DNA of 64,000 nt from Schmidtea nova (taxonomy: Eukaryota): contig CM097883.1 of NCBI GenBank assembly GCA_044892505.1, positions 394,630,001-394,694,000 on the forward strand, in the 5' to 3' direction. The notes under the pieces were generated by a model. It ran no database searches. It saw only the letters and a list, made by a program, of their open reading frames with translations, and was not told where the DNA came from. The translations under genes and the position numbers were made by a program. Of the stretch, positions 20,511 through 48,445 are shown one piece after another (position 1 is the first letter of the stretch; each line of letters begins with the position of its first letter).

Positions 20511-20538
20511 GGTATATATACCGCCATCAAAATGGCAG
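20511..20538 (+). promoter_or_regulatory. Putative LTR core promoter: TATA-like box plus paired YY1-type motifs
   Basis: GGTATATATACCGCCATCAAAATGGCAGA; conserved in diverged relics at 9703 and 17832 (minus) and repeated at 42927. Confidence 0.55.
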
Positions 20539-23500: not shown

Positions 23501-24585
23501 ATAAAAATGTTGAATCGATGGAAGCACACTTTCTTTTGATGTAGAGAGAAGATTTCTGAGGTGATGAAGCGATCCCAGGGAGAAATCCGAGTCCTGAGAA
23601 TATATATGGTAAAGGAAGTGAAGAATAAAACTGAAAGTTTACCTGTAGAGACAACTGGATAGGAGAATTCTATTATTGAGTTCGATATCTGCAAAAATCG
23701 ATAATTATATAACATTAACATATTATAATGTAAACATTAACCAATCAGGTTGCGATATTTACCTGTTTAAAACAATGACCTGGAAAGTGATAATTGTTAA
23801 ATAAATTTTTTTTTTGTTGCTTGCATGAAATGAGGAAATCCAGGAAGAAAATTTTAATATGACAGAATTATTTTTTGTAAGTCGTAAAATAGTCTTTACA
23901 TGAGTAAATAAAACATCTAGGTCATCAAAGTTGTTTCAATTAGCTACATTGTAATCGATGTAGTTGTCAAGGCCGCGGAAAAGTTTTCAAAGAATGAAAA
24001 TATAAAAATTTCAGTAAAATTATAAATGTTATTTTTCTAAGCAAGATAGACAATAGGATTTGAATTTTCGAAAACAAAATTTAATTTAAAATCTGAAAAT
24101 ATAGGGATTTAACTAAAATCAATAGATAATAATTAAAATAAATATCTAGGTAGTTCATATCGATACCGTTGCTAATGCCTCGGCAAATTTTGGAAAAATT
24201 AAATAAAAATAAAAAAATTTAGAAAATTACAATTATGTTTCTGCAAGATAGACATTAGGAATAAGGAATAAGTGAGATATCGTTAAATTTATCGACATAG
24301 AAAATTACAAATTTAGGAGAATCTCGAAACTAATAATAAAAAGTTTAGTTAAAAATCATTAAAAATCCAATACCGTGAATAGATGTGTTAATAAAATGGG
24401 TTACCCTTTTTGATTTCCCGGATTGAGAGTTGATAAGCATATCCGTGAAAAAACTCGCGATCAAATATGTGAGAACTCCTTAACTTATTGCATTAATGAA
24501 TGAACTAATTAATTTTTGTGTATGATGATAATTTAGTAAATATTATACGATAACCAATGTCTTAAATGTTCGAACTTTTCTAGCA

Positions 24586-25158
24586 ATGAACCCAATGCAA
24601 CAACTTGAAGAGATCCGGGCGTTATTGCTAGAAAACGCCAAGCACAACAAAAGGGTCGATGCACGGTTGGCCGAACTGGAAGCCAAGGGCGCATCCAACG
24701 TAGATGCCCTCCAGATAATGACCGGCCGCATGGAAAAATTCCGGGCCCGCTGTCGCGAGATGGAGGCGACATGGTCCGATGGGGAAACAGTGGAGAAGCT
24801 CAAGAAGCAAAATCAGATGCTGCTCCAGCAGGCAGCCGAGGACGCCATGCGATTGCGAGCATGTCGAGTTTCCATGCGGGAGCAGGAGCTCACCAATCAG
24901 AAGCTACAGGTAGATAGCGGTCTTATAACGGCCATTCTGCCAAAGCCCCAATTCCCACCTCACGAGCTGTTCCCGGTGAGGGTGGAGGAAGAGATAGCAG
25001 CAGCCGCGGCTCCAGTCAAACCAAAGCGATGGAGGCCCAGTAAAGGGGCAAGGGCCCGCAACAAGCGCCGGCAAGAAGCGCGAGTTTTGGGGCAATTGAG
25101 GGTCGAGGCCTCAAAAATTGGTAGTCTATCGATCGACCTGACGCAGGCACCCTTTTGA
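24586..25158 (+). CDS. LTR-encoded 190-aa protein: coiled coil, Arg-rich motif and NES-like tail
   Basis: Intact GC-rich ORF inside an AT-rich LTR; preceded by CTTTTCTAG|CA-ATG; contains KPKRWRPSKGARARNKRRQEAR and ends ...IGSLSIDL. Confidence 0.75.
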   Translation: MNPMQQLEEIRALLLENAKHNKRVDARLAELEAKGASNVDALQIMTGRMEKFRARCREMEATWSDGETVEKLKKQNQMLLQQAAEDAMRLRACRVSMREQELTNQKLQVDSGLITAILPKPQFPPHELFPVRVEEEIAAAAAPVKPKRWRPSKGARARNKRRQEARVLGQLRVEASKIGSLSIDLTQAPF

Positions 25159-25623
25159 ACACTTCACATTTTTTTTTTATTGTGATTTTAGTAACAAATG
25201 TTATCATTTTATTATGAAATTATAAGTTTGTAATTGTTTTTTTTTGTATTTGATTGCATGGAGATAAAAGTAAATATAAAGATATTTGAATTAGTATTAA
25301 ACAAACCACCGTCGGCGAAAATGCTCAAATAAAAATCTCGTAATAAACATATACAGTGATAGAACAGATAAATTAAGGGGGACAAAAATGGGCAAGAAAC
25401 CTTCTATCGGTAGCCCTTGGACCCAGGAGATATTCGGTCAATCATAGTTTCGTATTGACGACGCTCACTGATTGCGAATACCCACCCACTTGTTACAGTA
25501 CCAACGTTACATAGTGACGGGTAACAAGGTGGTAATTTCAATGTTTTATGTGTTGAGTTGTTGATGAGAGCCATAGAAACGTCAAGGTCATATTGACGGT
25601 CAACAACCCACCATATAAAAATT

Positions 25624-25642
25624 TGGGGGCTCAGCCGGGATT
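25624..25642 (+). promoter_or_regulatory. Primer-binding site, tRNA-Pro-like
   Basis: TGGGGGCTCAGCCGGGATT matches the complement of the tRNA-Pro 3' end (TGGGGGCTCGTCCGGGATT) with 2 mismatches; lies 10 nt after the LTR end. Confidence 0.8.
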
Positions 25643-25928
25643 CTCGATTTAGCTAGTTTGTTTTGTGTGAAGCGAAAATCAATGGAAATGACTTTACGTG
25701 GGAATTTATTAATGTTTTTGTGTTGGAAAGATAAAATATTTTAAAGAAAAACGAGATTTGGTAAAAGTTTTGTAAAAATCGATAATCATTTGAGTACTTT
25801 CGACGAAAATGGGAAAAATTTATGCTTGACTATTAATATTATTTATATTGCTATTATTATTTTTACGACAATAGTTATTTTATACCATTATAAGTATTAT
25901 TATTAGGATTATAATTATAAACAGTACG

Positions 25929-25947
25929 ATTATTATTATTATTATTA

Positions 25948-26020
<73 letters not shown>

Positions 26021-26037
26021 TACCATTATTATTATTA
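25929..26037. repeat. (ATT)n microsatellite abutting an assembly gap
   Basis: ATT run directly before the N stretch. Confidence 0.95.
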
Positions 26038-26042
26038 GGATT

Positions 26043-26234
26043 NNNNNNNNNNNNNNNNNNNNNNNNNNNNNNNNNNNNNNNNNNNNNNNNNNNNNNNNNN
26101 NNNNNNNNNNNNNNNNNNNNNNNNNNNNNNNNNNNNNNNNNNNNNNNNNNNNNNNNNNNNNNNNNNNNNNNNNNNNNNNNNNNNNNNNNNNNNNNNNNNN
26201 NNNNNNNNNNNNNNNNNNNNNNNNNNNNNNNNNN
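26043..26234. other. Assembly gap (192 N) inside the giant element
   Basis: N run; true size unknown. Confidence 1.
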
Positions 26235-26899
26235 AGTAGAGAATATCGTTTTAAGTACCATTTTGAATTAAGATTTGGAAAAATTTGGAAAATAAAAAGT
26301 TCCGAATCAAAATTACCGCGAAAGCGAATAAAAGTTAAGCCGAAAAAACGATCTTTAAGCCCCACGAACAGCCAACGATTGAAATTGAGAACGATTAATA
26401 ACAACAGAGCGTAGAATAAGTGTCTTTAATATAAATAAACGTCAAACATAGCATAGGATAAAAAGTTGAGCCGGAATGATCCAAAAGTCTAAGAAAATCA
26501 CGGGTAAAATAGTCAAAATACAAAATCGCGACAAATGAATCCCACGAACAACCAATAATCGTAAAATTGTTCAAATAACGTCCATAGAGCGTAGAAAGTG
26601 AGTACGCAGCACCGGCAAGTGGAAAATACCTCGAAAGATAGAATTTGACACCGAAATCCGCAAAAAGTGTAGAAAATCGCCGCTAAGAAATTCAAAAGAT
26701 TGAAGAAATTACGGAATTTTGACCCAAGAAAGCAGTAACACCGAGTATTAATGATAGTATAGATATCAGGATTATTATTATTATCATTTTAACAATAGAA
26801 AGAGTAATTTGGTCAAATAATAAAACCGATTTATTATATTTTTATTATAATTATTACGTAATAATATATAAGAAAAATATTGGGTAAATTGCCGCATAA

Positions 26900-27095
26900 C
26901 GCGCATTATTATTATTATCATTATAATTGCTATTATTACTATTATTATTATCATTTTAGTTATTATTACTAGTAGTACTATAAGCATCTTAGTATAATTA
27001 TTATTATTACTATTATTATCATTATTATCATTAATATTATCATTATTACTGTTATTATCATGAGTGTTACTGTAGATGTCATTATTATTACTAAC
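26900..27095. repeat. Imperfect (ATT/ATC/ACT)n low-complexity tract
   Basis: Degenerate trinucleotide run. Confidence 0.8.
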
Positions 27096-27849
27096 GATAT
27101 CAATGTTATGCTATTTGATTAAGAATGACCGAGGTATGACCCCTGTAATTTTATTTTGTTGGCAAGGAAGGACATGGAAAGTATCGGGTCTAGAAGAAAT
27201 AACGGCGAAAATGGAGCGATGCGTGAATTGTTTGTTTTAATTAATATAATAATAAAAGTGGAGAATGAATGATATAATCTAATGAGTTTGAAGTTTGAAT
27301 GTTGAAAAAGATAGATTGTTGAAGTCAAAATGATGCATGGTGATATTGGAATGTTGATCGCGACTCAATTCGGGAATCGAAAACGGGAATAACTCTAAAA
27401 TCTTATGAAATCATAAAATAAAATCTAGCAACGACTTAAAAACAAATATAATCAAACAGGAAAAAGTGAGACTTAACGTAAATACGAAAATTGTGAGATG
27501 CCCAAAAATTGGGAACCTAGTAAAAGGAAATGTTATATGATCATACGATACGGGATAGAGTTCACGCAAATCACCTAGAAAACAAATATTCGAGTATACA
27601 AAAATTGCTTTCAGTAAACGAAAAATTACCAAAAATTGCGAGTGCTGTAAATAAAAATATAATTATCCTAAAATTGATAAAAAGAGTAAAAATCATGAAA
27701 ATTGTGTAAATAAATGTTTAATTATTTTTTATGTAGAAAATATTAGTATATTTAAAAAATATAAAAAATCATAAAAATCATGTACTTAATGGCTGATTAT
27801 TTTATTCAAAAAATATCGAATATGGACGAATGGAGAAAATTATAAAATA

Positions 27850-27990
27850 TAAAAAGGTAAAAATATAAAAATATAAAAATATAAAAATACAAAAATATAT
27901 GTATAAAAATGGCTGAATATTCTGTTAGTTAAAAATATAAAAATATAAAAATATAAAAATATAAAAATATAAAAATATATGTATAAAAAT
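27850..27990. repeat. AAAATATA 8-mer repeats with duplicated GTATAAAAATGGCTGA block
   Basis: Seen directly in the sequence. Confidence 0.8.
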
Positions 27991-28158
27991 GGCTGATTAT
28001 TCTGTTAATAGTAGTTTTGAAAAAATACAAAAATATATAAAAAATTATAAAAATTCGTGTACATAGCTGTTGAAGTTTTTATTATTTATTTTTCGTTCAA
28101 ATTATAATGAATGGTTAATTTAAAAAGTTATAAACACCAGTCATCATGAATATTTTAG

Positions 28159-28641
28159 ATGGAATCGATTGAGCATATTCTACTACGAATCGAGTTGTTT
28201 TTCGATTTTAAAAATGACCCATTGCAGGTGTTGAGCGAGAAACTCGAACGAGTAAATGGAATAAAAGATGAATTATTGTTGAATCCTAGACCACAACCTG
28301 AGAACCTAATAGTGATTGCAGGAATTGTGGGAACAACAAACGATATTTCGTTGGAAACGATTTATGAATTACAACGATTGCGACTGAATAATCCGAATTT
28401 TAATCTGAATATACAAGAATGGATTGGTAAGATCGATAAAATTATGGACAAGCTAGAGAGATCGATAAATCAACAGATCGATTCATTCGAAAGATTTTAT
28501 ATTTGTCGACAAAAAGAAGCGAACATTTTGTTCATGCCATGTGGGCATTTGTGTTATTGCCAGCCGTGCTCTAGAGAAATAAAGCGATGCGTAATCTGCA
28601 AACAGACAATTGATGACAAAATCGTCGTATTCTGTTCGTAA
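28159..28641 (+). CDS. 160-aa protein with C-terminal IAP-type RING (first Cys replaced by Phe)
   Basis: FYICRQKEANILFMPCGHLCYCQPCSREIKRCVICKQTI; TTTTAG directly before the ATG. Confidence 0.85.
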   Translation: MESIEHILLRIELFFDFKNDPLQVLSEKLERVNGIKDELLLNPRPQPENLIVIAGIVGTTNDISLETIYELQRLRLNNPNFNLNIQEWIGKIDKIMDKLERSINQQIDSFERFYICRQKEANILFMPCGHLCYCQPCSREIKRCVICKQTIDDKIVVFCS

Positions 28642-29268
28642 AGAATGTCGTTCAAAATAAACGTTTTAGTCATGTTGAACTTCGTCGATCATCCAGTAAT
28701 ACAAACCGTTATAAAAATTAAATAAACAAAAAACACTAGGTAATTAATGATTGAGAGTCGTGTAAAAACATAACAAGTAACGGCTAATGCCGAAAAATCA
28801 AACATTAGGAAAATGGGAATTTGTGACAAAGTTATTTTCTTTTCTTTTTGAATTTTCTTTATTATTATTATTATAAATCCTCCTCATCATTATTATATTG
28901 AACCGAATTTCATTACTATAATCTCCCTTATTACCATTATTATATTGATTATCATTATTATACTGATCATTATATATATAAATATGTATGTATTAGGACG
29001 AGCAATAAGTAGCGTTATAGGAGTTGATTTTATAAGGAAATCTTCCGAAATACAGTGAGAAATGAGTGTCTGAGTAGAAACGAGAAAATAATCCACAAAT
29101 TCATAACTGAGCTATCAAAAGATAGTACGCCAAGTTTTAACAGAGCTATCAAAAGATAGTACGTCAATATTTCTGTTGTTGAAAAATTAGCAAACAACAA
29201 ACGGGGAAAAACCTGATCACCTTAAGGAGAAAGTGTAGAATAGGATCCATCGCAAATGTGGATAAATT

Positions 29269-31047
29269 TTGTTTGTGACTGATCATCACAACTTGCAGAA
29301 CGAGTCGACGCGATTATTTTACGATTTTAACTTAGGAGAAAGGGTCAAACCCGTAATGTTCGTCTTATACACCAGTTTACCAAGGCATGATTGGTACACT
29401 GAGGTAGGAGACAGTAATATTAATAAAGAGAAAGATGCTGCAGATTTTAGAAAGTCGAAAGAGTAGAAAGTGAACTTCGACGATTTTACCATGGTAATTA
29501 AGAAATGAATTCGTAATTGAGAAGTAGTAGAACAATTTGAGAAAAACCAGTCAGCAACAGCGAATTTATTTAAAAATTTGAGAATAGGGAAACGAGTGAT
29601 TGAATAGCATAAAGAGAACAATTGAAGACGGCCGAGATAATTGAGAGACTTTGAGAGTCCATTGAGAGACTTTGAGAGTCCATTGAGAGACTTTGATAGT
29701 CCATTGAGAGACTTTGATAGTCCATTGAGAGACTTTGATAGTCCATTGAGAGACTTTGATAGTCCATTGAGAGACTTTGAGAGTCCATTGAGAGACTTTG
29801 ATAGTCCATTGAGAGACTTTGAGAGTCCATTGAGAGACTTTGATAGTCCATTGAGAGACTTTGATAGTCCATTGAGAGACTTTGATAGTCCATTAAGAGA
29901 CTTTGAGAGTCCAGATAATTGAGCGCTCGGGGAGAGACTTTGAGAGTCCAGATAATTGAGAAACTTTGAGAGTTCATGTATGTGAGAGACTTTGAGAGTC
30001 CAATGTTTGCGAATATTGTTGAGAAATTTAGGAAAAATGTTTGAGAAATAGAATTAAATAAAACTGCAGTTATAATTTTGTCATGACAGAGAAAAACGTT
30101 GAACGCGAATACTCAAGGTGTATAAGAGCAGATAAAAGACATCGAGAAATACTTAGGAAATAAAATAATGGCCATGAATAGATAACGAACAAGACATTTT
30201 TTTTTACCTCGAATGCCGAGATGAATATGAAAACGAGTCGACAGGATCCTACTGTTATTATAGTATTAGTATAGTTATTATTATTGTTATTGTTATTATT
30301 ATTATTAGGGTATAGATAATTGATACGACCATATAGATAATTATTACGAGATATAGATAATTTAAAATCTGAGCTCAAAGTAAAAGGGGGGTAAATGGCG
30401 TCGATGAAGAAGCGATTTTTTTATTTAGATTGTCCAACAGATCAAAGCCAAGTCAAGAGACAGTCAAATCAATCAGTTATTGAAGAGGTATATATAGAAG
30501 AAAAGAAGAAAAAGAAGTCTAATTGAAAAGGAAAGAAGTAAAAGAAAATAAATCAAAGAAGATCCAATTGAAGATAAACGAGAGATCAGCAATCGATATT
30601 AAACGCAAATTGATAATACTACCAAACCAACCAAGTTCGTAAAGTCGAAAGATAAAGAGTCAAATCTATTAAAACGACGAAAGGAAATTACAAAGAAACA
30701 AAGCTGATAAATAAGGAAGTAAAATCCACAATATTTGAATGTTTGTAGCCGATTTTCAGAAAGAAATGGAAGAGAATCAGAAAGTGACCAGTGTAAACTC
30801 GGAAGATAATTTATTAAAAGAAGAGCAGAAAATAACCAGTCCAAAAGTAGAAGATAATTTGCAGGAAGAAGAAAAAGAAGTAGTAACAATGAATATGCAA
30901 CTGCAACAGAATATCGAAGGAAAGGTAAATGAAATGATAACCGAACTATCAGACGTTGAAATTGAAAGAAAGGGAAATGTATATGAATTTTCAGTAAAAG
31001 ATATGGAGGGAGAAGAAAAGAAGAAGTTTGTGGAGAAATATAACTGA
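29269..31047 (+). pseudogene. Decayed coding-like region at the gag position (fragmented by stops and repeats)
   Basis: Purine-rich plus-strand fragments (29269-29466, 30739-31047) broken by in-frame stops, upstream of the protease ORF; no diagnostic gag motif recognised. Confidence 0.35.
29641..30001 (+). repeat. 21-bp minisatellite (13 near-perfect plus about 3 degenerate copies), open as (RDF[D/E]SPL)n
   Basis: Unit GAGAGACTTTGA(T/G)AGTCCATT; no spacers. Confidence 0.96.
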
Positions 31048-31086
31048 AAAAGAAGAGAAAGAAGAAGCGATGATGACACATGTAGC

Positions 31087-33876
31087 ATGGACGAGAAATG
31101 GGATGAATCTACGACAATCAAATTAGAAGAAGTGGCACAAAGATTGTTAACAATTACCATGGAAGAAATGACGAAAATGGATCAAAAATCAGAAGAAAAG
31201 AGGAAATCAGCAAAGCTTGAAAGATCAAGACAAACAGAGATGTCAAAGACCGAACGATTAATCAGTAACCTAAGCAAGAGTGCAGGAAATCAATGTGAAA
31301 CAACAACTGAATTACTAAAATGGGTTATAAAAAATAGTGCAAATATATCAAATATGAGATTGATAGTGAAAGAAATTGAGAAATGCAGACATTTATGCCC
31401 TTGGTATTCAACACAAATTGATGACATCATGAGAAAATGGAAACAACTGGAACAAACAAATGATGATCCACAGATGTGCAGATTGAAAATTCAGTTTCCG
31501 AGTCTAGAAGAAATAAAGATGAATGTATCATTAACAACAAAGATCAAAGAGATAAAAGAGAGATTACCATTCAATTTACCATTTCACTTGAAATATGATG
31601 GAGAATCGCTGGATGATGATATAGAAATCGGTGTAACCCCGATACAAATCGAAACAAGTAATAAATTAACTGTTGATAAAATTGCAGGAAGCGAGTTAAC
31701 CAGAAAAGCGAGAGGTGAAGATAATCCCGAAACAACGATAATTGCAATGATGAAAACTCCAGCTGGACCAACACTTACAATTAACATCAAAGTTAATGAC
31801 GTAAAAGTAGACGCGATGATAGATACTGGCGCAAATATATCAGCAATAGATATCGATATGATACCAGAAATGTTACGGTTATGCATCGAGAAAACATCAG
31901 TAGACGTAATAACATGCAGCAAAGAATCTGTCAATATCGTTGGAAAGATATGGACAGACATCGAATACAGAAATGTAAAAATATCAACTTATTTGACAGT
32001 AATAAAACAACTGGGTGCCTCATGCATTATTGGAACAGACTTAATACCAAAACTGTTAAAAGGATCTGTAATTGATTTGAATACGATGAAGTTGAAACAC
32101 CAAATTGAAGAGAATTGCACAAGAGAAACAATGATAGAACAATCAAATCCAGAAACAACCAGAAAAGGACAAGTATATATGTTCCGAGAGAATAAAAATG
32201 ACGATTGGCTACATCGTATATTAACTGCGAGCAGAAAAGTAAATCAGCCAACAACAATATCTGAACAACCTAAGGTAGTTGACGATGTAAAAATGGAGCA
32301 CCGCAAAAAGATGGAATTGATCATAGAGATTACCAAAGAAATTATGCCAGAATGGTCAAAAAGTAAAAATCTATTCGAAATATTGGGAGGAGTAAGCTTA
32401 ATGGTTGAGGAATATGCCAAAGGAAATGAAACAACAGAAGCGATGAATACCATAAAAGAAAGATTACCAATATTATTTACAATTGCCAGTTTTAAAGATG
32501 AAATACCATTGTATCACGCAATAAAAAGTGGGAATGAACAGAGAATGTTTGAAATCATAAAACTCATGGAAAAGTGTAAACAACATACCAACACGAAAAA
32601 CTGGAAAGATCAAACACCCTTGATGATAGCAATTGAAAAAGGAGGATCCAAGAAACTCATAGCAGAACTGATGAGAACCGGATCAAGTTTTAAAGAAAGA
32701 GATGATAAAAATGAAACGGTGTTATCATATGCAGTGCAAGCAAATAACCATCAAATAATCAAATATATTATGTCAAATGCTACAGAAGAAGATATTGAAG
32801 TGCTCAGTTCAGATCCAAATCCATTAGTAAATGCAGTGAACAAAGATGCCGACGAAACAACAGCAAAAATGATTAAATGGTTACATCCAGTTACGCACGA
32901 AGGAGTGATAAATGTCAATGACAGATTTGAAGACGGTGAAAATATGATAATGAAAAGAGCCATGAAAAGAAAATGGAAAATGTGTAAAACGATTAAAGCA
33001 TTGCTGCAAAGACCTGATTTCAGATTTACAAACAACAAAAAAGAAAAAGAAAGAATTGGATCTAAAAGATATGATATATGTCAGCAAGTCATCATATGGA
33101 AAGAACATATAAAAGAAAGCAGAATTCACCGAAGCTGGAACAATGCCAAAGATGAGATAACCAAGAGAGCAAATATAAAAGCCGAAGCAGATGAAATAGC
33201 TAAAAGATATGAGGAAATAATAAAATTAATAAATGTCGAGGACGACATTTTAATCAGAACCGAGGGTGGTGCTGATGATCACAATGAGCCTGACGATGAA
33301 GATGAAGAGAATGATAACAACAAAACAAAGAAAGATGACAATGAAAGTACCAACAGAAACAATGACAAAGACGAGAAAGATGATGGAAAAAGCAATAACG
33401 ATGAAATTGGGAACAAAAGTGATGAACCCAAGCAAGAAACTTCAAATTATGAAAAACGAACAGCATGTCTACATAAAACTCGAATAAAAGACATAATATT
33501 GCTGATACTGATGCTGTCAACATTGAAAGGAACGGAAGCCGATGATAAAAGAAAACCAGTACAAGTATTAACATCAGGAGCAGATAATGAAGAAGCATGT
33601 TGGAGTAGCATCAATTTGCAAAGTAAAGGAGATAATCCAGTCAAAAGTCAACGAGCAGAAGGAGGAGAAATCCGAATAAATGGATTGAAGCGGGATGCAA
33701 AATACAAAATCTGGGTTTACAAAAGGAAAGCATCACAAGAAATGTTTAGAACACTCGTATGTCAGATAGTAACACATAATGGTTCAAAAGTCACCCAAGA
33801 AGACATAAAAGTCATATTAACCGACGAGCCAGATGAGAACATCAGGATGTCGTCGAAACGCAAGTTGTCAGAGTAA
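31087..33876 (+). CDS. 929-aa polyprotein: ubiquitin-like domain, retroviral aspartic protease, about 4 ankyrin repeats, acidic linker, internal signal-peptide-like segment, FN3-like tail
   Basis: UBL-like aa 130-202 (IKMNVSLTTKIKEIKERL...LKYDGESLDDD...KIAGS). Protease DAMIDTGANISAI (DTG at 31822) and CIIGTDL. ANK motifs LYHAIKSG, TPLMIAIEKG, TVLSYAVQAN, NPLVNAVNK. DIILLILMLSTLKGTEA, then IRINGLKRDAKYKIWVY. Confidence 0.85.
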   Translation: MDEKWDESTTIKLEEVAQRLLTITMEEMTKMDQKSEEKRKSAKLERSRQTEMSKTERLISNLSKSAGNQCETTTELLKWVIKNSANISNMRLIVKEIEKCRHLCPWYSTQIDDIMRKWKQLEQTNDDPQMCRLKIQFPSLEEIKMNVSLTTKIKEIKERLPFNLPFHLKYDGESLDDDIEIGVTPIQIETSNKLTVDKIAGSELTRKARGEDNPETTIIAMMKTPAGPTLTINIKVNDVKVDAMIDTGANISAIDIDMIPEMLRLCIEKTSVDVITCSKESVNIVGKIWTDIEYRNVKISTYLTVIKQLGASCIIGTDLIPKLLKGSVIDLNTMKLKHQIEENCTRETMIEQSNPETTRKGQVYMFRENKNDDWLHRILTASRKVNQPTTISEQPKVVDDVKMEHRKKMELIIEITKEIMPEWSKSKNLFEILGGVSLMVEEYAKGNETTEAMNTIKERLPILFTIASFKDEIPLYHAIKSGNEQRMFEIIKLMEKCKQHTNTKNWKDQTPLMIAIEKGGSKKLIAELMRTGSSFKERDDKNETVLSYAVQANNHQIIKYIMSNATEEDIEVLSSDPNPLVNAVNKDADETTAKMIKWLHPVTHEGVINVNDRFEDGENMIMKRAMKRKWKMCKTIKALLQRPDFRFTNNKKEKERIGSKRYDICQQVIIWKEHIKESRIHRSWNNAKDEITKRANIKAEADEIAKRYEEIIKLINVEDDILIRTEGGADDHNEPDDEDEENDNNKTKKDDNESTNRNNDKDEKDDGKSNNDEIGNKSDEPKQETSNYEKRTACLHKTRIKDIILLILMLSTLKGTEADDKRKPVQVLTSGADNEEACWSSINLQSKGDNPVKSQRAEGGEIRINGLKRDAKYKIWVYKRKASQEMFRTLVCQIVTHNGSKVTQEDIKVILTDEPDENIRMSSKRKLSE

Positions 33877-34026
33877 CCAGTGGAAGGAACAGTGTATATA
33901 GTGTATAAAATTATATTGTATTATAAAAGTAGAATATATTTGTATAATAAAAATTTAAAAATCCAAAAAATGAATACCTCAAAACTGGGAAAAACAAATG
34001 ATAATATTGTGTAATTATTGACAGAA

Positions 34027-34662
34027 ATGAATCCGAACAACGAGAATCAAAGTTATCAAACATCAGTTCCAACGTTCAATGAACCATCAAATCAAACTCA
34101 GTTTCCAGAAGATACCAATATACGAGAAAGAGAAGGGTCACTGCAAACCCCAGTAATCGAAAATGAAACGCAAAATCCAACAATTGACGAAAGAAACCTG
34201 ATATACCAAGTTGAAATTCCACTATTTGATGAAACCATGAACCCAATTCAAACGACATTCGTATTAAATCAACAACCAACAAATAGCCAGACTCAATCAA
34301 TATCAGCTCCGATGGTTTATCAGCAGACAATGACGCAAGAGTTATCATGGAAAACGCAATGTGAATTATTAAGCAGGATGTTGAATCAAGCCTATGCACA
34401 ATGGAAAAACGAACAAGCTTTGTTAACAGAAAGCGTAAACAGAAATTTATTATATCTTGCTAAAATGGAAGAACAACAACAAATGATAATCCAAAAGGAC
34501 CAGAGAATTGAATGGTTAACAAGACATACGGAGTGGCAAACAAACGAAATCAGAAGATTGAATGAGACGCGAGAAGAAGTTAGAGCATGGTATAACTGGT
34601 TAGACAATTTTCCAGAACCGGTTCGAGAACCTGACTCGACGGGAAGGGATGAACTATTATAA
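34027..34662 (+). CDS. 211-aa hypothetical protein (Q/N/T/P-rich N-terminus, coiled-coil C-terminus)
   Basis: Intact ORF; TTGACAG|AA precedes the ATG at 34027. Confidence 0.7.
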   Translation: MNPNNENQSYQTSVPTFNEPSNQTQFPEDTNIREREGSLQTPVIENETQNPTIDERNLIYQVEIPLFDETMNPIQTTFVLNQQPTNSQTQSISAPMVYQQTMTQELSWKTQCELLSRMLNQAYAQWKNEQALLTESVNRNLLYLAKMEEQQQMIIQKDQRIEWLTRHTEWQTNEIRRLNETREEVRAWYNWLDNFPEPVREPDSTGRDELL

Positions 34663-34702
34663 AAATTTAAAACCAGTGTAAATAAAATGTAAAAATGTGA
34701 AT

Positions 34703-36160
34703 ATGAATAAAACTTGGTATAAAGAGCAAAACGAAAAAATTGTAAATTATTTTAGAATGCAGACCGAGAATCAGCAGAAACAAGAGGAATTGATCGAACT
34801 ATATCAGATACTACAGAGACAACGGATAGAACCAACAGAATTTCAAGAAAGATTTAAATGTAAAGTATGTAGAAATTTATTGATAGAACCCAGACAAACT
34901 GAATGTGGATGTCGAATATGCACTAATTGCGTGATGAAAATAATACGAACCAAACAGAAGCTATGTCCTGAATGTGGTGAAGCAATAATAGATCAATTTG
35001 ACCAAACCAGACCAGATATCGCAATGAATCGGGAAATAATGAACGCAGCAACAACCTGTCCAAATAAACCATGTGTATGGAGTGGGCCAATAAAATGGAT
35101 CGCCAAACACCTTTATAATTGTGATGATACGAAAGCCAAATGCAAGTGGTGTAAGGAAGAAATGTTGAAGAAAGTCAAAGACAGTCATGAGGAAATGTGT
35201 GAACAACGACAGGAAATATGTGAGTTTTGCAATGAAACAGACGCTTGGATAGTGTTAAAAGATGAGCATTGGAATATAGAAGAAGGGCAAGTATGTGACG
35301 AGTATGAAGGTAATTGTAATCAATGTGGAATGGCAGAAAACGTGAAGCTAAAAGAACATTGGGAAATATGCGAAAAGAAGCCTACTGCATGTCCACTAAA
35401 ATTATTCAACTGCAAAGTGAGATTACCAAAAGAGGAAATACAAAAGCATGTAGATGAAAATAGTGTAAATCATTTGAGAACCGTTGTGGAAGCTATTGGA
35501 GCAACCGCACTGGTAATTGGAGAAGCCAACACAGAAATAAAATCACACAAAATCATGATACAAGAGATGTTGGATACGAGAGGAAACTTTGAAAGAATAA
35601 GAGAACAAATGATCCAAAAAATGATACTATTAGACCAGAAAATAACAGAAATATCAACAATCCAACAAAGATTGGAAAGCATATTGCCAACAATGGAAGA
35701 ACTACCCGTCACACCCTACTATTGGAAAATCACAGAATTTACAGAGAAATTGAGACTAGCAAGAGAAGGAGGTCAACGTGTATGGACAAGTCCACCTTGT
35801 CACAGTTGGAAACATGGTTACAAGCTTAGATTCAAAGTATATCTAACGGGAGACGGACTAGGAGCCGGAACTCATTTATCTGTATATTTTCAAATATGTA
35901 AAGGAGATTATGACGATTGGTTGGAATGGCCCTACGATTGTGATATAACTATGATGATCGGAACAAAGGAAAACAACGTTCGGGAAGTATTCAGACCAAA
36001 CTTGAAGAAGGTAGAAGCAGCTTATAGGAAGCCGATCGAAAACTACAACGTAGCTGTAGGAAATCCACGTTTTATTGCATTACATTATTTAACCACAGAA
36101 CAATCATTATATTTGGTAAATAATATCCTGTATCTGATTATCGAAGTGAGGAAGCCGTAG
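34703..36160 (+). CDS. TRAF: Full-length intronless TRAF-family protein (RING, TRAF Zn fingers, coiled coil, MATH), TRAF2/3/5-like
   Basis: RING CKVC...ECGCRICTNC...CPEC; repeated Cx-Hx3C fingers; MATH YYWKITEF...GYKLRFKVYLTGDGLGAGTHLSVYFQICKGDYDDWLEWPY; 485 aa from the ATG at 34703. Confidence 0.95.
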   Translation: MNKTWYKEQNEKIVNYFRMQTENQQKQEELIELYQILQRQRIEPTEFQERFKCKVCRNLLIEPRQTECGCRICTNCVMKIIRTKQKLCPECGEAIIDQFDQTRPDIAMNREIMNAATTCPNKPCVWSGPIKWIAKHLYNCDDTKAKCKWCKEEMLKKVKDSHEEMCEQRQEICEFCNETDAWIVLKDEHWNIEEGQVCDEYEGNCNQCGMAENVKLKEHWEICEKKPTACPLKLFNCKVRLPKEEIQKHVDENSVNHLRTVVEAIGATALVIGEANTEIKSHKIMIQEMLDTRGNFERIREQMIQKMILLDQKITEISTIQQRLESILPTMEELPVTPYYWKITEFTEKLRLAREGGQRVWTSPPCHSWKHGYKLRFKVYLTGDGLGAGTHLSVYFQICKGDYDDWLEWPYDCDITMMIGTKENNVREVFRPNLKKVEAAYRKPIENYNVAVGNPRFIALHYLTTEQSLYLVNNILYLIIEVRKP

Positions 36161-36380
36161 CGAAGATGGAAAAAGTGTAAATATGTCTGTATTATAATGA
36201 AGTATCTGTATCATAATGTACAAAATAAAATTAAAAAATCACAAAAAACATAAAAATTAAAAAGAAATATAAAAATGAGAAAAACCAAAAAATCAAATAT
36301 AAAAATGAGAAAAATCAAAATTTTGTAAATATAGAAAACAAAAATTGTGAAAATATAACGGAGAAAATATTGTAGATACA

Positions 36381-37550
36381 ATGACTGAAAGGAAGATCGT
36401 GAAAATACGAGAAGATGACAGATCATTCAAAAGTTTATGCGAATTAATGAAAAGAGGTAAAGAAAAGATGTCAAAACCAATTACCTCAGAAATGATTCAT
36501 TGTCGATTTACACGAACAATATCGAATGTTCCTAAGGAAAGGAGTTATGGAAAATTCAAAATTATCGATGAAACGTTGAAAAATGAGAACCGAAGATATA
36601 TAACCTTTTTACAACAAGACAATTTCTATGAAAAGCAATACAGAAAATTCGCCAAAGATGGTTTGTATTTTGCAGGGACAATTGAGAAACCCGATAAAGT
36701 AACCTGTGTATTTTGCAGAATTGAAATAGAACCTTGGAGAATTAACGATGATCCACTTACAGAGCATAGAAAACTTTCACCCACATGCCAGTTTGTGTTA
36801 AAGGCATGCGAAAAACCAAGAAAACCAGCAACAATGAACCACGACGAAGAAGAAAAACCCAAAATAGTAACGATAACTTCAACAGGTCCAGCAAAGATAC
36901 GATTCATAGAAATTGATCCAAAATATACGATTAATGGGAGAACTGACACCTTTGCGGATAAAAAGATGGGTATCAGATTAGCAATAGAAGGTTTTTATGC
37001 AATAAATGAATCAACAGCTGAATGTTCAGAGTGTGGAATACAATATCAATTACCAAAAGAGGAAGGAGAATACCTGAAACACAACGAATATTGTAAATAT
37101 GGAGAAGAATTATATGAAGACGAAGAACCGATCAATTATAAAAACCCAGAGATGCCTGTTAATGAATTATTAGTAGATAAGATATTAGACGAACCACGAA
37201 CTCAAAAGGTAATGGAACGCACCGGCAAAAGCGAAATATTTGTGAAAGAAGTTGTCAGAGAGAGATTGAGAAGAAATGGAGAAACATTTGGATCAACCCT
37301 AGAATTTTTCAAAGCTATGATACAGTTCACCAGAAAATCCCAAGTTGTCAACCCAGAATCATGTATCAAGAAAGTTATATTAAATAAACACCCCTGTTCA
37401 ATTTGTTGGATAAAGAAAGTAGAAGTTATTCATTTACCGTGTGGACATCTGTTAGCATGTGAAAATTGTAGCAATAAATTGAGATTGTGCTCGATGTGCA
37501 GGAAACCGGTCGACAAACGGATCAAGGGATTCCGTTATGCCGACCAATAA
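36381..37550 (+). CDS. IAP: Intronless inhibitor-of-apoptosis protein (BIR, degenerate BIR, UBA-like, RING)
   Basis: BIR CVFCRIEIEPWRINDDPLTEHRKLSPTC (Cx2Cx16Hx6C); second BIR CSEC...HNEYC; UBA-like VMERTGKSEIFVKEVVRERLRRNGETFGST; RING CSIC...LPCGHLLACENC...CSMC. Confidence 0.94.
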   Translation: MTERKIVKIREDDRSFKSLCELMKRGKEKMSKPITSEMIHCRFTRTISNVPKERSYGKFKIIDETLKNENRRYITFLQQDNFYEKQYRKFAKDGLYFAGTIEKPDKVTCVFCRIEIEPWRINDDPLTEHRKLSPTCQFVLKACEKPRKPATMNHDEEEKPKIVTITSTGPAKIRFIEIDPKYTINGRTDTFADKKMGIRLAIEGFYAINESTAECSECGIQYQLPKEEGEYLKHNEYCKYGEELYEDEEPINYKNPEMPVNELLVDKILDEPRTQKVMERTGKSEIFVKEVVRERLRRNGETFGSTLEFFKAMIQFTRKSQVVNPESCIKKVILNKHPCSICWIKKVEVIHLPCGHLLACENCSNKLRLCSMCRKPVDKRIKGFRYADQ

Positions 37551-37684
37551 TCCAATCAAACAACTTTGTAAATAAATTGTAAAGATTTTAATTTCAATCG
37601 ATGTATACAAGTATTATTTAATAAGCATGAGCAACAAAAAATGTATAAACAAAAGGAAATTACCCATGTTATTATTATTTCAGA

Positions 37685-39232
37685 ATGAATATACAACAAT
37701 TGATAGACATCCTAGATCAGGAGATGGCCAAAAGACAAGAGCAACTAAATCAAATGAGAAATTATGAACAAAGAATGGAAGCCATCCAAGAGAACGTTAA
37801 AATGATTGAAAAACGAACCCAAGAGATCAATAAAATAAAAGAGGAAAATGAGGAACTGCGAAAGATAATAATCGACAAGGCGCATGTCGAAGCTGAACTA
37901 GAAAATTATAAACGAGAGTACAGGGAAATGGAGAGAAAACTCGAGCATGAACAACGAAAGTCGGTACCGTTGAAAAATCAAGCAAGATTGAGAAAAGATG
38001 AGCTCGAAACTTATAAAAGAGATACCGAAACAAGGTATGACAACTCCATAAGATTCTATCAGCAGCAACTCGAAAGTGAAAGAAACAGATATGAAGCCAT
38101 GAAAAAGAAATGGGAAAAGTGTCGAGATGAAGCATTTGTTTTGAGAGGACAACCTCAAAAGAAGCTTAAAGTCAGAACAAGAAACATTGAACCTGAAAGC
38201 GAACAAGAAAAGATCATTAGAAAAGTTAAAGCAGAGGCTAGGAAATGGAAACAAGAACACCAAGATTTGTTGGAAATGGCTCGACACAGAAAAATGCTAC
38301 AGGAAGAATTACTAAGACGGAGAGACGTTCAAATCGAGGCTCTGAAAGAGGAATGTCATTGGTATGCAGACATACGTCATGAGGAAACGGAGAAACTCAG
38401 AAAAGAAATATTCCAGTTGAAAACGAGCGGACAGTTCAGAGAAAGAAGCATAAAGCATCAAATAAAGTGGCTAATAGAACAAGCCAGAACATGGAAAAAG
38501 ACCTGGAAAAGAACTCGAGACGAACTACGAGAATTCCCCAAGAAGCTGATGTCAATAAATGAAGCAGAATTGTGGGAAAATGCAGAAAAGCAAGAGATAG
38601 AAAACAAAGAATTAAGACGGCAAATTCAATTAAAAACCGAATGGAATCAAAGGAGAATGAAATTTACCAGGAATCAAGAAGCTCGCATCAAATATCTGGA
38701 ATTCGAAAACAGGCAATATGACCAACAGAAGAATATGGATGATCGAAGTATTGAAGAACTGACAAGAGAATTGACTATTGCAAACCGTGAAGTCAACGGA
38801 TATCGAGGAACAAATACTCATAAAGACATTGTTATTCAACACCAGCGACGGCAGATAGAAGAAACAAAGGCCGAATGTGAGAAAGCGATCCAGCAATCGC
38901 AGTATGAAATTGAAATGGCTATCCAAAGTTTGGAAGAAAACCGCCAAAACTATGAAAGAGAGATTGAAAGATTGAAAAATATGGAAAATACGAGAGAGCT
39001 CGAGATAGAAAAAGAACAGCTGAGTGAAGAACTCGATTATATGACCTATTTGCTAGATGAAGAGATAGAAATCTCAAGAACTTTGCGAGAGAGAGTTCAG
39101 AGCCTACAAAATCAACCTCCAATCATTCTATGGCCACTATATCCAACACCAATACAACCTGTACATTTGGAGCCAGAAAATCCTCAAATCGAAGATGAAG
39201 GGTTCGGAGAAATTGAAGAGACGTTTGTATAA
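37685..39232 (+). CDS. 515-aa long coiled-coil protein of unknown function
   Basis: Intact E/K/R/Q-rich ORF with heptad character; TTTTCAG|A precedes the ATG. Confidence 0.8.
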   Translation: MNIQQLIDILDQEMAKRQEQLNQMRNYEQRMEAIQENVKMIEKRTQEINKIKEENEELRKIIIDKAHVEAELENYKREYREMERKLEHEQRKSVPLKNQARLRKDELETYKRDTETRYDNSIRFYQQQLESERNRYEAMKKKWEKCRDEAFVLRGQPQKKLKVRTRNIEPESEQEKIIRKVKAEARKWKQEHQDLLEMARHRKMLQEELLRRRDVQIEALKEECHWYADIRHEETEKLRKEIFQLKTSGQFRERSIKHQIKWLIEQARTWKKTWKRTRDELREFPKKLMSINEAELWENAEKQEIENKELRRQIQLKTEWNQRRMKFTRNQEARIKYLEFENRQYDQQKNMDDRSIEELTRELTIANREVNGYRGTNTHKDIVIQHQRRQIEETKAECEKAIQQSQYEIEMAIQSLEENRQNYEREIERLKNMENTRELEIEKEQLSEELDYMTYLLDEEIEISRTLRERVQSLQNQPPIILWPLYPTPIQPVHLEPENPQIEDEGFGEIEETFV

Positions 39233-39507
39233 ATAATAAAAGTGAATGTAAAGTGTAAAAAGAAATTGAAATGTAGTGTAAAAAGAAAACGTTGTAAAGA
39301 AATGTAAAAAGAAAAAGTTGTAAAATATATCCAAAAAAAAAAAAAATTTAAATAAAAAGCAGAAAAAAATAAAAAATTCAATAAAAATTAGAAAAAATGA
39401 AAAACAAATAAAAATTAGAAAATGATAAAAATGATAAAAATGATAAAAACAAAAAACAAAATTAATAAAACTGTAGAAAAGAGTTATGAAAATTCAAATT
39501 ATAGAAA

Positions 39508-40083
39508 ATGAGACTATTGAAGCAAAGATCAGAACCAGAACAACAAACGATATCAAAAGAAAGATTCAAAAAATGGAAAAGAGCAACAGAGCAATATTAT
39601 CAAGACCAAATAGACCAATTGAAGGAAGTAGTGAGCAAAGATAGAAAATATATCGCACAAATGGAGCAAGAGTGCGAGACGATGGAAATAATCAAGCGAG
39701 AAAATTATCTATTTCGCCAACAAAATGGTCTCACTCAAAAATATTGCGACAGACAGAAGCAAGAGATTGACAGACTCAAAAGGGAAATAAGCAGTGAACA
39801 GAACACTGTTAATAAAAGGAGAATTAAGATCGAGTCATTACAACGATCCTTGAAGAGCAAACAGAAAAAGATTATAAAAAGAGAGAAACAGATAATAAAG
39901 TTGAAAAGTGAAATCATAGAAGCAAAATTCGATACGTTCAAAGCAAAGAAAGTTGTAGAAATTAAAACGGCAGAAAACTACGTCCTCAAAGAGAAAAGGC
40001 GAAAAGAAGCAGACGAGATTGCAAAAATGGGTAACTGGAAGCCAGAAAGTCCGTTAAAGCTAAATGAAGAGACGAAAGAATAA
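39508..40083 (+). CDS. 191-aa basic coiled-coil protein
   Basis: Intact ORF; TTATAG|AAA precedes the ATG. Confidence 0.75.
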   Translation: MRLLKQRSEPEQQTISKERFKKWKRATEQYYQDQIDQLKEVVSKDRKYIAQMEQECETMEIIKRENYLFRQQNGLTQKYCDRQKQEIDRLKREISSEQNTVNKRRIKIESLQRSLKSKQKKIIKREKQIIKLKSEIIEAKFDTFKAKKVVEIKTAENYVLKEKRRKEADEIAKMGNWKPESPLKLNEETKE

Positions 40084-40178
40084 AATATATCTAAACTCAT
40101 GTAAATATCCCTGTAAAAATATCAAAGAGAAAATTTGACAAATCATTAAACAAATTTGAATCTATAAATCTATAGAAA

Positions 40179-41003
40179 ATGAACAATCTAATGAGGATCA
40201 CAACAACCATCATGATATTTATAATTACAAACTGCCGAAGCGAAGAAGCATTGAGTCAATGTCAAGCAAGCCATCCATTTAGAAGATCCGATAGCATTTG
40301 CGTAAGCTATCAAGAAATTTGTATCAGCAGAAATGAGGAGTGTCAACAGATCCAACTACAATGTCAACAATGTCCTAAACCCAGAGAAGATTCAATCACC
40401 ATCCTTAAACAATTGAGAAATGAAACTCAACAATTAATCCAATTACAAATCTCCTTAACCAAAAGAAACAATCTTCAACTAAAGAAATAGCTCGAAAACC
40501 AATCATCCTTCAAACAGTTAACGACCGAACTAAAGAAATTGAGCAAGTTAATAGAAAAATCTCTAAATAATAAAGATGAAGTTAATGAGGAAAGATCAAG
40601 TTTCACAGAGGAGTTAAATCAAAAACTAAAAACTCAACTTCATCAAACCGAGAGAATTATAAAGCAATTGATATTACCCGAAAAGCAAAAGGAGATTATC
40701 CCTAAACAAGGATCAACCAACGAAGACGTCAGAGACCGAGAAGCAGCCATCACAGTCGTTCTACAAGGCATCAGTCTTTTCGCGGTCATAATGATCCTTA
40801 GCATGGTTGCATCAATCGGATTAGAGAAAATGAAATTAGAGAAAGCGAAAATCCAGCTGAATACCATCAAACGAATCACCCTTGAAGACAACAACCCGGC
40901 AAAAAATTTTCTAAGATCAGTATTTGAAGATCCAGTTCCAAGACATCCTAATCCTGAGACATCTACAACCTCGGTGCAGATGAATTACTTCTATAAACAA
41001 TAA
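40179..41003 (+). CDS. Type I membrane protein 1 (274 codons) interrupted by one in-frame TAG at 40488-40490
   Basis: Signal peptide MNNLMRITTTIMIFIITNCRS and Cys-rich/coiled ectodomain. ORF-track entries 40179-40490 and 40539-41003 share a frame with no other stop. TM helix AAITVVLQGISLFAVIMILSMVASIGL. Confidence 0.75.
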
Positions 41004-41205
41004 TACGATTCTATTCCCTTTTTGACAATTCATGTATTTTCTTCCAGTCATTCAACCTATCTATCTATTTGTATTCTCATCTTTAACAATATTTCATCAT
41101 CATTTAAATCATAACCCTGTGTAAAATCGTAACGCCCCTGTAAATAGCAAAAATTGTTTATCGTCATTATTCAATTTCTCTCTATTAGAAAAATAAAAAT
41201 CAACA

Positions 41206-42000
41206 ATGAAATCGTACCGAGAAGTTTTTCTAATCGCCATGATCACAACAATTTGTTGTCATCTTGAAGAGACCCGGAAATCAAGCCAATTAAACCCAAA
41301 TCAACCAGATAATAAAGAATCATTTGAAATCTCTAACAACAAACAACTATCCGAAAAGATCGAGCAAGCCAAAATCGAAATTCAAAATACCCTTTTCAAT
41401 CAAAATGATGAAATTTCAAGTCTAAAAAGAATAGCAAGGATAATATTAGCCGATTTAGCGATCAGAGATACATTCGAGGATATTTTTGATAATGATCGAG
41501 AAACCCGTGACGCAATAAAAAGTCTCACCAAAGAACTTAAAAGGAATGTAGGCAAGTTAATCGATCAGCTAACGATAAATTCATCAAGCCCGAAATGTCT
41601 GAAACAAATCCAGCAAATTCATCATAACCTGTCCCAGTAGATTTCCGAAGTAGGAAACCAAACGGCACAACAACTGAGAAAGGCTTATTTCGAGAACCTG
41701 GCATTTAAGAATAAAATCCACGATCACGTAAAAGAGATATCGAAACCGGATAACAATCAAGACAGAGACAAGTGCAGAGTATCCCTCCTATCATCCGAAC
41801 GAATTCTCGGGATCTGCCTGATCATCCTTAACTTTTTCTTAATAATCGGAATTTGTGGTATAATATGGTTAGGCTTGACCGCCACAAGAATAATGAACAA
41901 CATGACCTCCAAACAATCCCGAAGAGAAGATGACAAGAAACAGTTGATCAATTCCGAGTCATTCAAACTATTCCAGTCGAAGATCCAACCAATTCAATAA
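41206..42000 (+). CDS. Type I membrane protein 2 (264 codons) interrupted by one in-frame TAG at 41638-41640
   Basis: Signal peptide MKSYREVFLIAMITTICCHL. Manual translation past the TAG stays open for 119 codons to TAA at 41998-42000 and includes TM ILGICLIILNFFLIIGICGIIWLGL. Confidence 0.75.
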
Positions 42001-48029: not shown

Positions 48030-48445
48030 CCTGAGTGATTTTGTAATTCACACAATGGGACTACTGACAGTCTGTTCATATATACCTGCTAGCAAATAAT
48101 TTTAAAAATGCTTGTTTTTTGGTCATTACTACGAAATAGTTATAAGTGAGAAATGTAATTCAATTTATTAACACAACAAAATCTTAAATAAAAATCCGTG
48201 ACAATTTTCAAGCATTGAGCAAAAATTATCTACTCCTGATTTAAAGTGACTATTTTATGATCACACTGACCGATTGTTGGTTGATCCAAATGAATTCGTT
48301 TGTTTACGATCAATCTCTTAATTAAATTTTGTCAATTCATAGTTATTATTAAAATTTTGCTACAACCAAGAATTAATTAATAATAAAAAATTTTTGATAA
48401 AAGAAATTAACATAATTATCTTTTTTCACCTTTGATCTTTTTTTA

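Follow-up and report, generated by a model that had tools for sequence, protein, structure and literature searches.

How does a single retroelement express a row of ten separate genes? The question is raised by a stretch of 64,000 nucleotides (nt) of the Schmidtea nova genome (GenBank assembly GCA_044892505.1, contig CM097883.1, positions 394,630,001 to 394,694,000 of the forward strand), hereafter the window, to whose numbering all coordinates refer. It contains a giant element with long terminal repeats (LTRs), in which ten cargo open reading frames (ORFs) follow one another on the same strand (Table 1). An earlier note on this DNA had proposed that the array is one polycistronic unit resolved by cis- or spliced-leader (SL) trans-splicing, with a YAG resembling a 3′ splice site just before nearly every start codon, and UGUA and AATAAA motifs behind the preceding stops. 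The core of this proposal stands. The AGs before the start codons are almost certainly real, working 3′ splice sites, and the array lies within what would be one LTR-to-LTR RNA, a precursor that is very probably resolved by splicing. By contrast, the role given to AATAAA and one of the proposed sites, at 31087, did not hold.

The nine YAG-ATG strings and the six TGTA(A/T)ATA words in the spacers from which the proposal was drawn are all present where they had been placed. A YAG within 6 nt is found at 8 of the 10 first ATGs, versus 68 of the 472 other plus-strand ATGs of the element (Fisher p = 9.5e-6), and none of 5000 dinucleotide shuffles reaches eight (mean 1.0). Two starts were corrected. 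The ATG at 31087, formerly listed with a weak site, is an internal Met in the same frame as the ATG at 30766, whose true acceptor is the TTTTCAG at 30759. The AG at 31085 served as a control: among 13 copies without that G, none is a splice join, all being point or small-indel variants. TRAF, which had been set aside as the exception, has a second in-frame ATG (34757) preceded by TTATTTTTAG and a single a, a pattern repeated in the divergent family F327. With both starts corrected, a YAG lies within 6 nt in 9 of the 10 ORFs (p = 3.9e-7).

That these sites are used is recorded in the genome itself. Reverse transcription of spliced genomic RNA leaves exact intron losses, and splice sites can be read from such intron-less retro-copies in an assembly, without RNA. 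The census of junctions, prompted by a contig from a sequencing run that skips exactly 30719-30759 with GT..AG ends, collected genome copies in which an exon start lacks its normal preceding bases; the sequence upstream was then read. In total, 15 distinct GT..AG junctions were found at seven of the ten acceptors, versus two non-GT deletions that end at acceptor AGs (3.9% of dinucleotides are GT; the count excludes L125, an ambiguous copy). At 37683, for instance, 46 of 46 matches are GT joins, with donors at 37603 (18 copies), 37579 (17), 37568 (5), 37611 and 34865 (2 each), and 37643 and 31975 (1 each); one of two further matches also joins 34865, so that this join is present in three copies. 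Joins at this acceptor amount to some 47 of roughly 1,400 copies, or about 3%. At 41188, all 26 matches end at 41139, the donor being 41140 (two read by script, 24 by eye; 1-nt indel). The acceptor at 40175 gave 93 matches, of which 59 lie outside the fetched list; eight are preceded by T, and among the seven of these examined six join 40101 and one joins 36056. The exact 41-nt loss before 30759 occurs in 3 of the 56 copies holding that 21-mer, in 4 of 28 exon matches among 30 copies taken in genome order (one more copy joins the same donor to 30763), and in 4 of 9 long copies. At 34755, three of three matches lack 34717-34755 (two placements, one of them GT..AG), and four others are point variants. 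One of two matches at 34024 is the exact loss of 33903-34024, and of 23 at 39504, one joins 31975 over 7530 nt (GT..AG in one of three placements), the remaining 22 being point variants. Ten further pattern matches, judged by matched letters alone, comprise seven CAG variants, two AAG and one known join.

Most of the splice joins have a single possible placement, and ordinary deletions lie mostly within microhomologies. When 39 long copies and the window were compared all against all, 144 deletion keys were obtained, seven of them compatible with GT..AG, and every compatible key with a unique placement ends at 30759, 30763 or 37683. In a tree of 61 copies, joined copies are scattered among intact ones, with at least nine forced changes for the 37579 join and at least five for the 37603 join; the joins at 37683 arose repeatedly. 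Since the losses are exact and bounded by GT..AG, the spliceosome must recognize these sites in RNA that spans the array. Among close copies, the AG itself varies in 4 of 606 bases and the six bases before it in 9 of 1818, versus 663 of 36915 for the spacers overall. The cargo ORFs vary most at third codon positions (0.035, versus 0.016 at first and 0.012 at second positions, or 2-3 times higher). Overall, seven acceptors are backed by junction copies, two more by conservation only and 36375 by motif only. For the LTR ORF, the T-rich YAG persists in three divergent copies with LTR variants, and F326 and F327 have one before their own LTR ORFs; that before the RING ATG is present in 3 of 3 divergent families.

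These families were reached through the primer-binding site (PBS)-like 18-mer behind the 5′ LTR, which has 2945 matches in the genome; the first 30 were sampled, and several families were among them. F326, F327 and F341 are autonomous, give no blastn match of at least 150 nt to the window and have 24-49% protein identity. Nevertheless, they carry homologues of the RING ORF, of the 211-amino-acid (aa) ORF (its C-terminal half, behind pol), of TRAF and of the 515-aa coiled-coil ORF, and a further ORF matches the secreted ORFs in position. Of their 17 accessory first ATGs, 15 have a YAG no more than 8 nt away, versus 397 of 1569 other ATGs (p = 1e-7); under a strict rule the counts are 14 of 17 and 83 of 1569 (p = 2e-15). 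The two misses are an AAG and the F327 TRAF, whose acceptor, like that of the window TRAF, stands before the second ATG; the F326 ORF labelled sp passes the loose rule only. The gag-pol ATG has no T-rich YAG close by in any of four families (nearest at least 57 nt away). The cassette common to the four families thus runs from a stop through 14-21 nt, TGTAWATA, an A-rich stretch and a T-rich YAG to an ATG 0-7 nt further on (17 nt at the last site). The short spacers are 92-272 nt long in the window (seven) and 72-129 nt in the other three families (12); the RING and protease ORFs of the window lie more than 2 kb from their neighbours. Such conservation indicates that the design is old and that the splice architecture is real and selected. 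A canonical branch-point word is present at only some acceptors.

The upstream half of the cassette concerns the other end of the mRNAs. In the seven short spacers of the window, TGTAWATA occurs 7 times versus 0.6 expected, and TGTA 32 times versus 11.9 (each 0 of 2000 shuffles), whereas AATAAA occurs 11 times versus 13.1, a count reached by 1594 of 2000 shuffles, so that its supposed enrichment is not borne out. Across four families, TGTAHATA starts 14-21 nt past the stop in 16 of 19 short spacers (standard deviation 1.8 nt, n = 16), and its distance to the next ATG ranges from 56 to 205 nt (standard deviation 36 nt, n = 15). It is tied to the stop, not to the following start, and would consequently belong to the 3′ end of the upstream gene. 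TGTAWATA would form part of a short 3′ untranslated region (UTR) or 3′ end of that gene, as a putative PUF-like or UGUA-binding element. The word fits the Pumilio/PUF consensus, UGUA[ACU]AUA, and is a candidate binding site. A CFIm site has become less likely, since an upstream UGUA is reportedly missing from the poly(A) sites of planarian host genes, with CFIm25 found but not CFIm59/68 (in the available part of PMC5068929). Two genes lack the element behind them, the last internal ORF and RING (0 of 4 families); in 4 of 4 families, the RING stop is followed by AATAAA at a distance of no more than 14 nt. A second TGTA usually follows about 10 nt after TGTAHATA, and tandem UGUA is common.

There is little sign of dedicated partners for the acceptors. 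Within one spacer, every one of the five GTA[AT] words serves as a donor, as do three sites inside ORFs; 9 of 12 scored donors match only 4-6 or 7 of 11 consensus positions (overall range 4-9). A T precedes 32 of 37 GTA words in spacers, versus 33 of 99 in ORFs; thus, the selected word is TGTA and not a donor. As donors, the TGTA words are weak, opportunistic and cryptic, and the acceptors appear to have no dedicated local donor.

What, then, is normally joined to these acceptors? By analogy with flatworm operons, it may be the host SL RNA, a proposition for and against which we would give even odds. The single LTR-to-LTR RNA of the element would contain the whole cargo array; the acceptors would free each cargo gene as its own mRNA, likely via host SL trans-splicing, and the rare cis joins would reflect promiscuous use of nearby weak donors. 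Points in its favour are the operon-like spacing, the ATG-adjacent acceptors, the lack of a dedicated donor, the rarity of cis use and the 3′-type element in each spacer. Schmidtea possesses SL trans-splicing (PMC10899757); flatworm operons are by definition made of genes at most 300 bp apart, and cis-splicing is lowest at operon acceptors (PMC12582326), while in Macrostomum intergenic distances in operons peak near 100 bp (PMC8629364), as far as the available parts of these sources go. Retro-copies record only splices that keep the PBS and the packaging region, so SL- or leader-joined copies are not expected in the genome, and none was seen at 37683 (0 and 2 matches), 34755 (3), 36375 (1), 28158 (2) or 40175 (6). 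Four unlabelled sequencing runs appear to be of genomic DNA (coverage over the spacers, more than 100 different LTR-end flanks) and yielded no SL, leader or poly(A) ends. The frame of the terminal AUG of the SL relative to the ORFs (5 of 11 in frame, hand count) is uninformative.

Several observations weigh against this account. The junctions seen are all cis. Some of them jump 2.8-7.5 kb, passing between one and four other acceptors, and the donor at 31975 occurs with two acceptors (37683 and 39504). The lack of SL-joined copies at 37683, 34755 and 36375 has to be counted here as well. No junction copy was found among the matches at 24583 (0 of 2), 28158 (0 of 2) or 36375 (0 of 3, these being two point variants and one non-GT deletion of 31 nt), and the number of independent losses may be overestimated if copies recombined with one another. 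AATAAA is unenriched, missing from several spacers and irregular across families, and the internal 3′ ends are putative. Three families have a candidate leader donor, GTGAGT or GTAAGT, behind the PBS: F326, F341 and that of the window, where it lies at 26598 and is retained by 17 of 27 copies. Finally, full-length RNA must escape ten acceptors, and no model here explains how.

Many of these observations would suit cis alternative splicing in the style of complex retroviruses or adenovirus late genes, in which a single LTR promoter and a single leader donor, located before the packaging region, would serve ten competing acceptors, the mRNAs stopping at the LTR or at each gene's own end. Every observed join is cis; the long skips (34865 to 37683, 36056 to 40175, and 31975 to 37683 and to 39504) have distant donors; 31975 and 30719 each reach two acceptors (30719 those at 30759 and 30763), although these donors look cryptic. 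Strong donor words stand behind the PBS in three of four families, the irregular AATAAA also points this way, and leader-spliced RNAs lose the packaging region, so that their absence from the genome is expected. However, no leader donor is homologous between families, none is obvious in F327 and 26598 is kept in only those 17 of 27 copies. No leader join occurs among the matches examined at the ten acceptors, and a 3′-coterminal nested set needs no conserved element fixed to the stop only where another acceptor follows. On balance, we regard a cis leader as possible but rather unlikely. An internal promoter for each gene, located in the end of the upstream ORF or in the spacer, with the acceptor closing a short 5′ UTR intron or outron, seems improbable. 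The 41-nt intron before the ATG at 30766, lost in about one-sixth of copies, does resemble an ordinary 5′ UTR intron, and 2-2.5 kb of AT-rich DNA lies upstream of the RING and protease ORFs; in addition, TGTAAATA would suit a forkhead DNA motif, and GTATAAAA would suit a TATA box. Nevertheless, the motif is spaced from the upstream stop and not from the downstream start, it tolerates TGTATATA, the local donors are many and weak, and spacers of 72-95 nt are a tight fit for a promoter, a first exon and an intron.

Still less probable is that the spacers are themselves regulated introns with TGTAAATA as donor, whose removal would leave no more than about 20 nt between stop and start, allowing re-initiation, or that back-splicing circularizes the ORFs. 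The stop-anchored TGTAAATA is indeed the donor at 40101 and in 5 of 46 joins at 37683, and another TGTAAATA, at 41139, is the donor in 26 of 26. However, the joins at 34024 and 34755 use other donors, and at 37683 it serves in only a minority of joins; its match to U1 is poor, with T at -1 and A at +5, about 97% of copies retain the spacer, and re-initiation after long ORFs is poor in eukaryotes. That AT-rich motifs arose by chance without function, a caveat already attached to the original proposal, is hardly credible: it holds for AATAAA, which is at background level, and 14% of other ATGs do have a YAG within 6 nt, but for the acceptors it is refuted by the enrichment (p<1e-5), the exact GT..AG losses, the negative control site and the conservation of the design in three DNA-dissimilar families.

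Known systems share parts of this arrangement. In complex retroviruses, spumaviruses and env-bearing Gypsy elements, accessory ORFs behind pol or in the LTR have their own acceptors and gag-pol starts without one, and spliced RNAs are occasionally retro-copied. The array differs from these in its at least ten acceptors in a tight row, in the stop-anchored spacer element and in that no conserved leader donor was found. With the SL operons of flatworms and nematodes, as described in the available parts of PMC12582326 and PMC8629364, it shares same-strand genes 72-270 nt apart, an acceptor before each ATG and low-level cis use of operon acceptors; the difference is that the array is carried by a mobile LTR element, which needs its full-length RNA to remain unprocessed. 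The ta-TRIM of Echinococcus is likewise a non-autonomous flatworm LTR element, and there cis donors compete with the SL for one acceptor, but the acceptor in question is that of a host gene, and the ta-TRIM is a tiny element without coding capacity (PMC4558846, available part).

The carrier itself resembles the Burro/GYPSM1 giant Ty3/Gypsy elements in its multi-kb LTRs, length of about 28 kb, target-site duplication and PBS, as well as in its MATH/TRAF, BIR, RING, ankyrin, SUMO-like and protease domains (PMC6431247, available part), an assignment made from described domains and architecture and not from the Burro1-4 sequences. Unlike them, the window family has no gag/env/protease-reverse transcriptase-RNase H-integrase (PR-RT-RH-IN) polyprotein, and its cargo is split into ten ORFs. 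Pfam recognizes RING (ORF at 28159), protease and ankyrin (31087), TRAF (34703), and BIR and RING (36381) domains in the window, with a SUMO-like match below the cut-off (E 0.021) in the protease-ankyrin ORF; gag, env, RT and integrase were not found in the window copy or among 39 long copies sampled. The motif upstream of the last ORF has 1433 genome matches, which puts the family at about 1,400 copies. A likely helper is F324 (L347-L349), fetched via the PBS, whose LTR ends are 97% like those of the window family and whose leader is also common to both. Its single ORF of 4906 aa (gag-CCHC-MATH-fusion env-PR-RT-RH-IN-ankyrin) is close to the 4,873-aa Burro1 ORF1 (PMC6431247, available part). 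The window element is best read as an RT-less, non-autonomous companion of F324 and not as an autonomous Burro; the env- and RT-bearing family would mobilize its copies in trans. The ORF at 30766..33876 is a deletion derivative of the Burro polyprotein without gag, RT or integrase. In being non-autonomous, in its long LTRs and in its presumed movement in trans, the window family is comparable to large retrotransposon derivatives (PMC6431247, available part), from which its ten mostly intact ORFs set it apart. The broader picture, which is tempting but slightly less than an even bet, is that a provirus-like giant LTR lineage evolved operons via the host SL, with at least ten single-gene mRNAs, for IAP, TRAF, RING and membrane proteins, and a cassette of 70-270 nt, and that the RT-less satellite of about 1,400 copies would serve as the cargo carrier of its helper.

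Burro elements are already known; the splice architecture within them was previously cryptic. They are abundant in planarian genomes, and a role of the Burro1 IAP in supporting regeneration and stem-cell survival has been reported (Lee et al. 2026, via the available part of PMC13465017). The literature searched, which excluded Grohme 2018 and Lee 2026 (either may report Burro transcripts), gave no description of how the many extra ORFs of Burro are expressed, of this expression design or of SL use by an LTR element, and the three passages of PMC6431247 in which 'splic' occurs do not concern Burro. If the SL is the partner, an animal LTR element or provirus would be organized as an operon on the host SL machinery; if the splicing is cis, a Ty3/Gypsy element would rival complex retroviruses with some ten spliced accessory genes. 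Both the conserved intercistronic cassette and the exact coordinates of acceptors and donors are directly testable with existing RNA data.

Table 1. Features of the LTR element in the window, its cargo ORFs (lengths in amino acids, aa), spacers and splice sites (TM, transmembrane)
Feature	Position	Strand	Details
LTR element	19917-48029		28,113 bp; TG..CA ends
Target-site duplication	19913-19916 and 48030-48033		CCTG
5′ LTR	19917..25613	+	5697 bp, TG..CA; 100% identical to 42333-48029
Acceptor-like TTTTCTAG and 190-aa LTR ORF	24576..25158	+	AG ends at 24583, ATG at 24586
PBS-like 18-mer	25624..25641	+	10 nt behind 5′ LTR; shared by several families
Acceptor-like ATTTTAG and RING ORF, 160 aa	28152..28641	+	AG ends at 28158; Pfam zf-C3HC4_3
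41-nt GT..AG intron	30719..30759	+	Precedes ATG 30766; alternative AG at 30763
SUMO-like/aspartyl protease/ankyrin ORF	30766..33876	+	Acceptor TTTTCAG at 30759; 1036 aa in other copies
Spacer	33877..34024	+	TGTATATA 16 nt past stop; donor 33903 used; acceptor TTGACAG
211-aa ORF	34027..34662	+	No Pfam match
Spacer	34663..34755	+	TGTAAATA at +14; donor 34717 used; acceptor TTATTTTTAG, then ATG 34757
TRAF-like ORF (RING, zf-TRAF, MATH)	34757..36160	+	Pfam; cryptic donors 34865, 36056
Spacer	36161..36375	+	TGTAAATA at +15; acceptor-like ATTGTAG; weakest-supported site
IAP-like ORF (BIR and RING), 389 aa	36381..37550	+	Pfam
Spacer	37551..37683	+	TGTAAATA at +16; acceptor TTATTTCAG; five GTA[AT] words, all used as donors
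515-aa coiled-coil-like ORF	37685..39232	+	No Pfam match; homologues in three autonomous families
Spacer	39233..39504	+	TGTAAAGT at +14; acceptor ATTATAG
191-aa coiled-coil-like ORF	39508..40083	+	No Pfam match above cut-off
Spacer	40084..40175	+	TGTAAATA at +16, its GT at 40101 used as donor; acceptor TCTATAG
ORF with hydrophobic N-terminus and C-terminal TM-like stretch	40179..41003	+	274 aa in other copies; no Pfam match above cut-off
Spacer	41004..41188	+	Donor 41140 (within TGTAAATA at 41139); acceptor CTATTAG, 17 nt before ATG
Last ORF, hydrophobic N-terminus and TM-like stretch	41206..42000	+	259-275 aa in other copies
3′ LTR	42333..48029	+	Twin of the 190-aa ORF at 47002

Some of the cargo ORFs are damaged in the window copy. 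The in-frame stop at 31045 in the ORF at 30766 is absent from 38 of 38 other copies read there, the stop at 40488 in the ORF at 40179 is private to the window copy (38 of 38 others are open) and so is that at 41638 in the last ORF (34 of 34 others are open). In other copies, an extra ORF of 482 aa (L153:8493-9941) separates the protease ORF from the 211-aa ORF. It has the acceptor cassette of the other cargo ORFs, a hydrophobic N-terminus, a Cys-rich stretch and a TM-like end, and no Pfam match above the cut-off. It is also found in L006, L208, L227, L242, L244 and L253, and one copy lacks a 37-nt GT..AG stretch inside it. Copies L005-L007 were considered as autonomous and rejected, as they hold this ORF instead. 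Protein searches for the cargo ORFs gave no usable homologues or context: the IAP-like ORF was without match, and the protease-ankyrin query had only ankyrin-region matches among those listed. BIR candidates number 1295 genome-wide.

Frequent non-splice deletions in copies L024-L053 and L201-L260 remove TRAF and IAP together (33632-37546 and 34457-37530) or 587 nt of the last ORF, and of 30 copies sampled in genome order, 15 are without the starts of TRAF and IAP. The middle of the LTR (22000-25385) is swapped between variants that share both LTR ends, and the ORF at 24586 lies inside a minority LTR variant, its exon being present in 1 of 30 copies in genome order. The final 230 bp of the LTR also match other elements at 73-78%. 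Within the LTR, 22264-22854 is rich in C and A and poor in G (GC skew -0.5), and a variable 21-nt tandem array occupies 29577-29975 in the internal leader. For the PBS-like 18-mer at 25624, the candidate primer is presumably tRNA-Pro.

The ORF of F324, which is Burro1-type and autonomous, has a Monjiviricetes-type fusion domain; behind its pol there are spacer-like motifs, yet no cargo ORF of at least 100 aa. In 4 of 4 autonomous families (L347-L361), the gag-pol frame is open for 100-153 codons upstream of the first ATG, which suggests a non-AUG start or an upstream exon, and a related acidic sequence ending in DSGI lies upstream of the gag ATG in three of them. F322 (L350-L352), 11 kb long, has the PBS in common with these families; its only ORF, of 898 aa, likewise has TGTAAATA behind it, 21 nt past the stop. 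A Bcl-2 family (L297-L316) was rejected as a helper, being an unrelated element of about 14 kb without DNA similarity to the window element; its LTRs measure 1.1-1.7 kb, its Bcl-2 domain lies within a 3,000-aa ORF and a second ORF reaches up to 850 aa. Many of the 1679 Bcl-2 candidates in the genome come from it.

Upstream of the element, the window holds two ordinary, frame-broken Gypsy-like elements (3426-7799 and 11972-16173), the second with 101-nt terminal repeats. Fragments recognized by eye on the minus strand resemble WD40 (722-1318), an ABC transporter (2708-3055) and a nuclear receptor (55461-55949); the last recurs beside another element in L358 and may itself be repeated.

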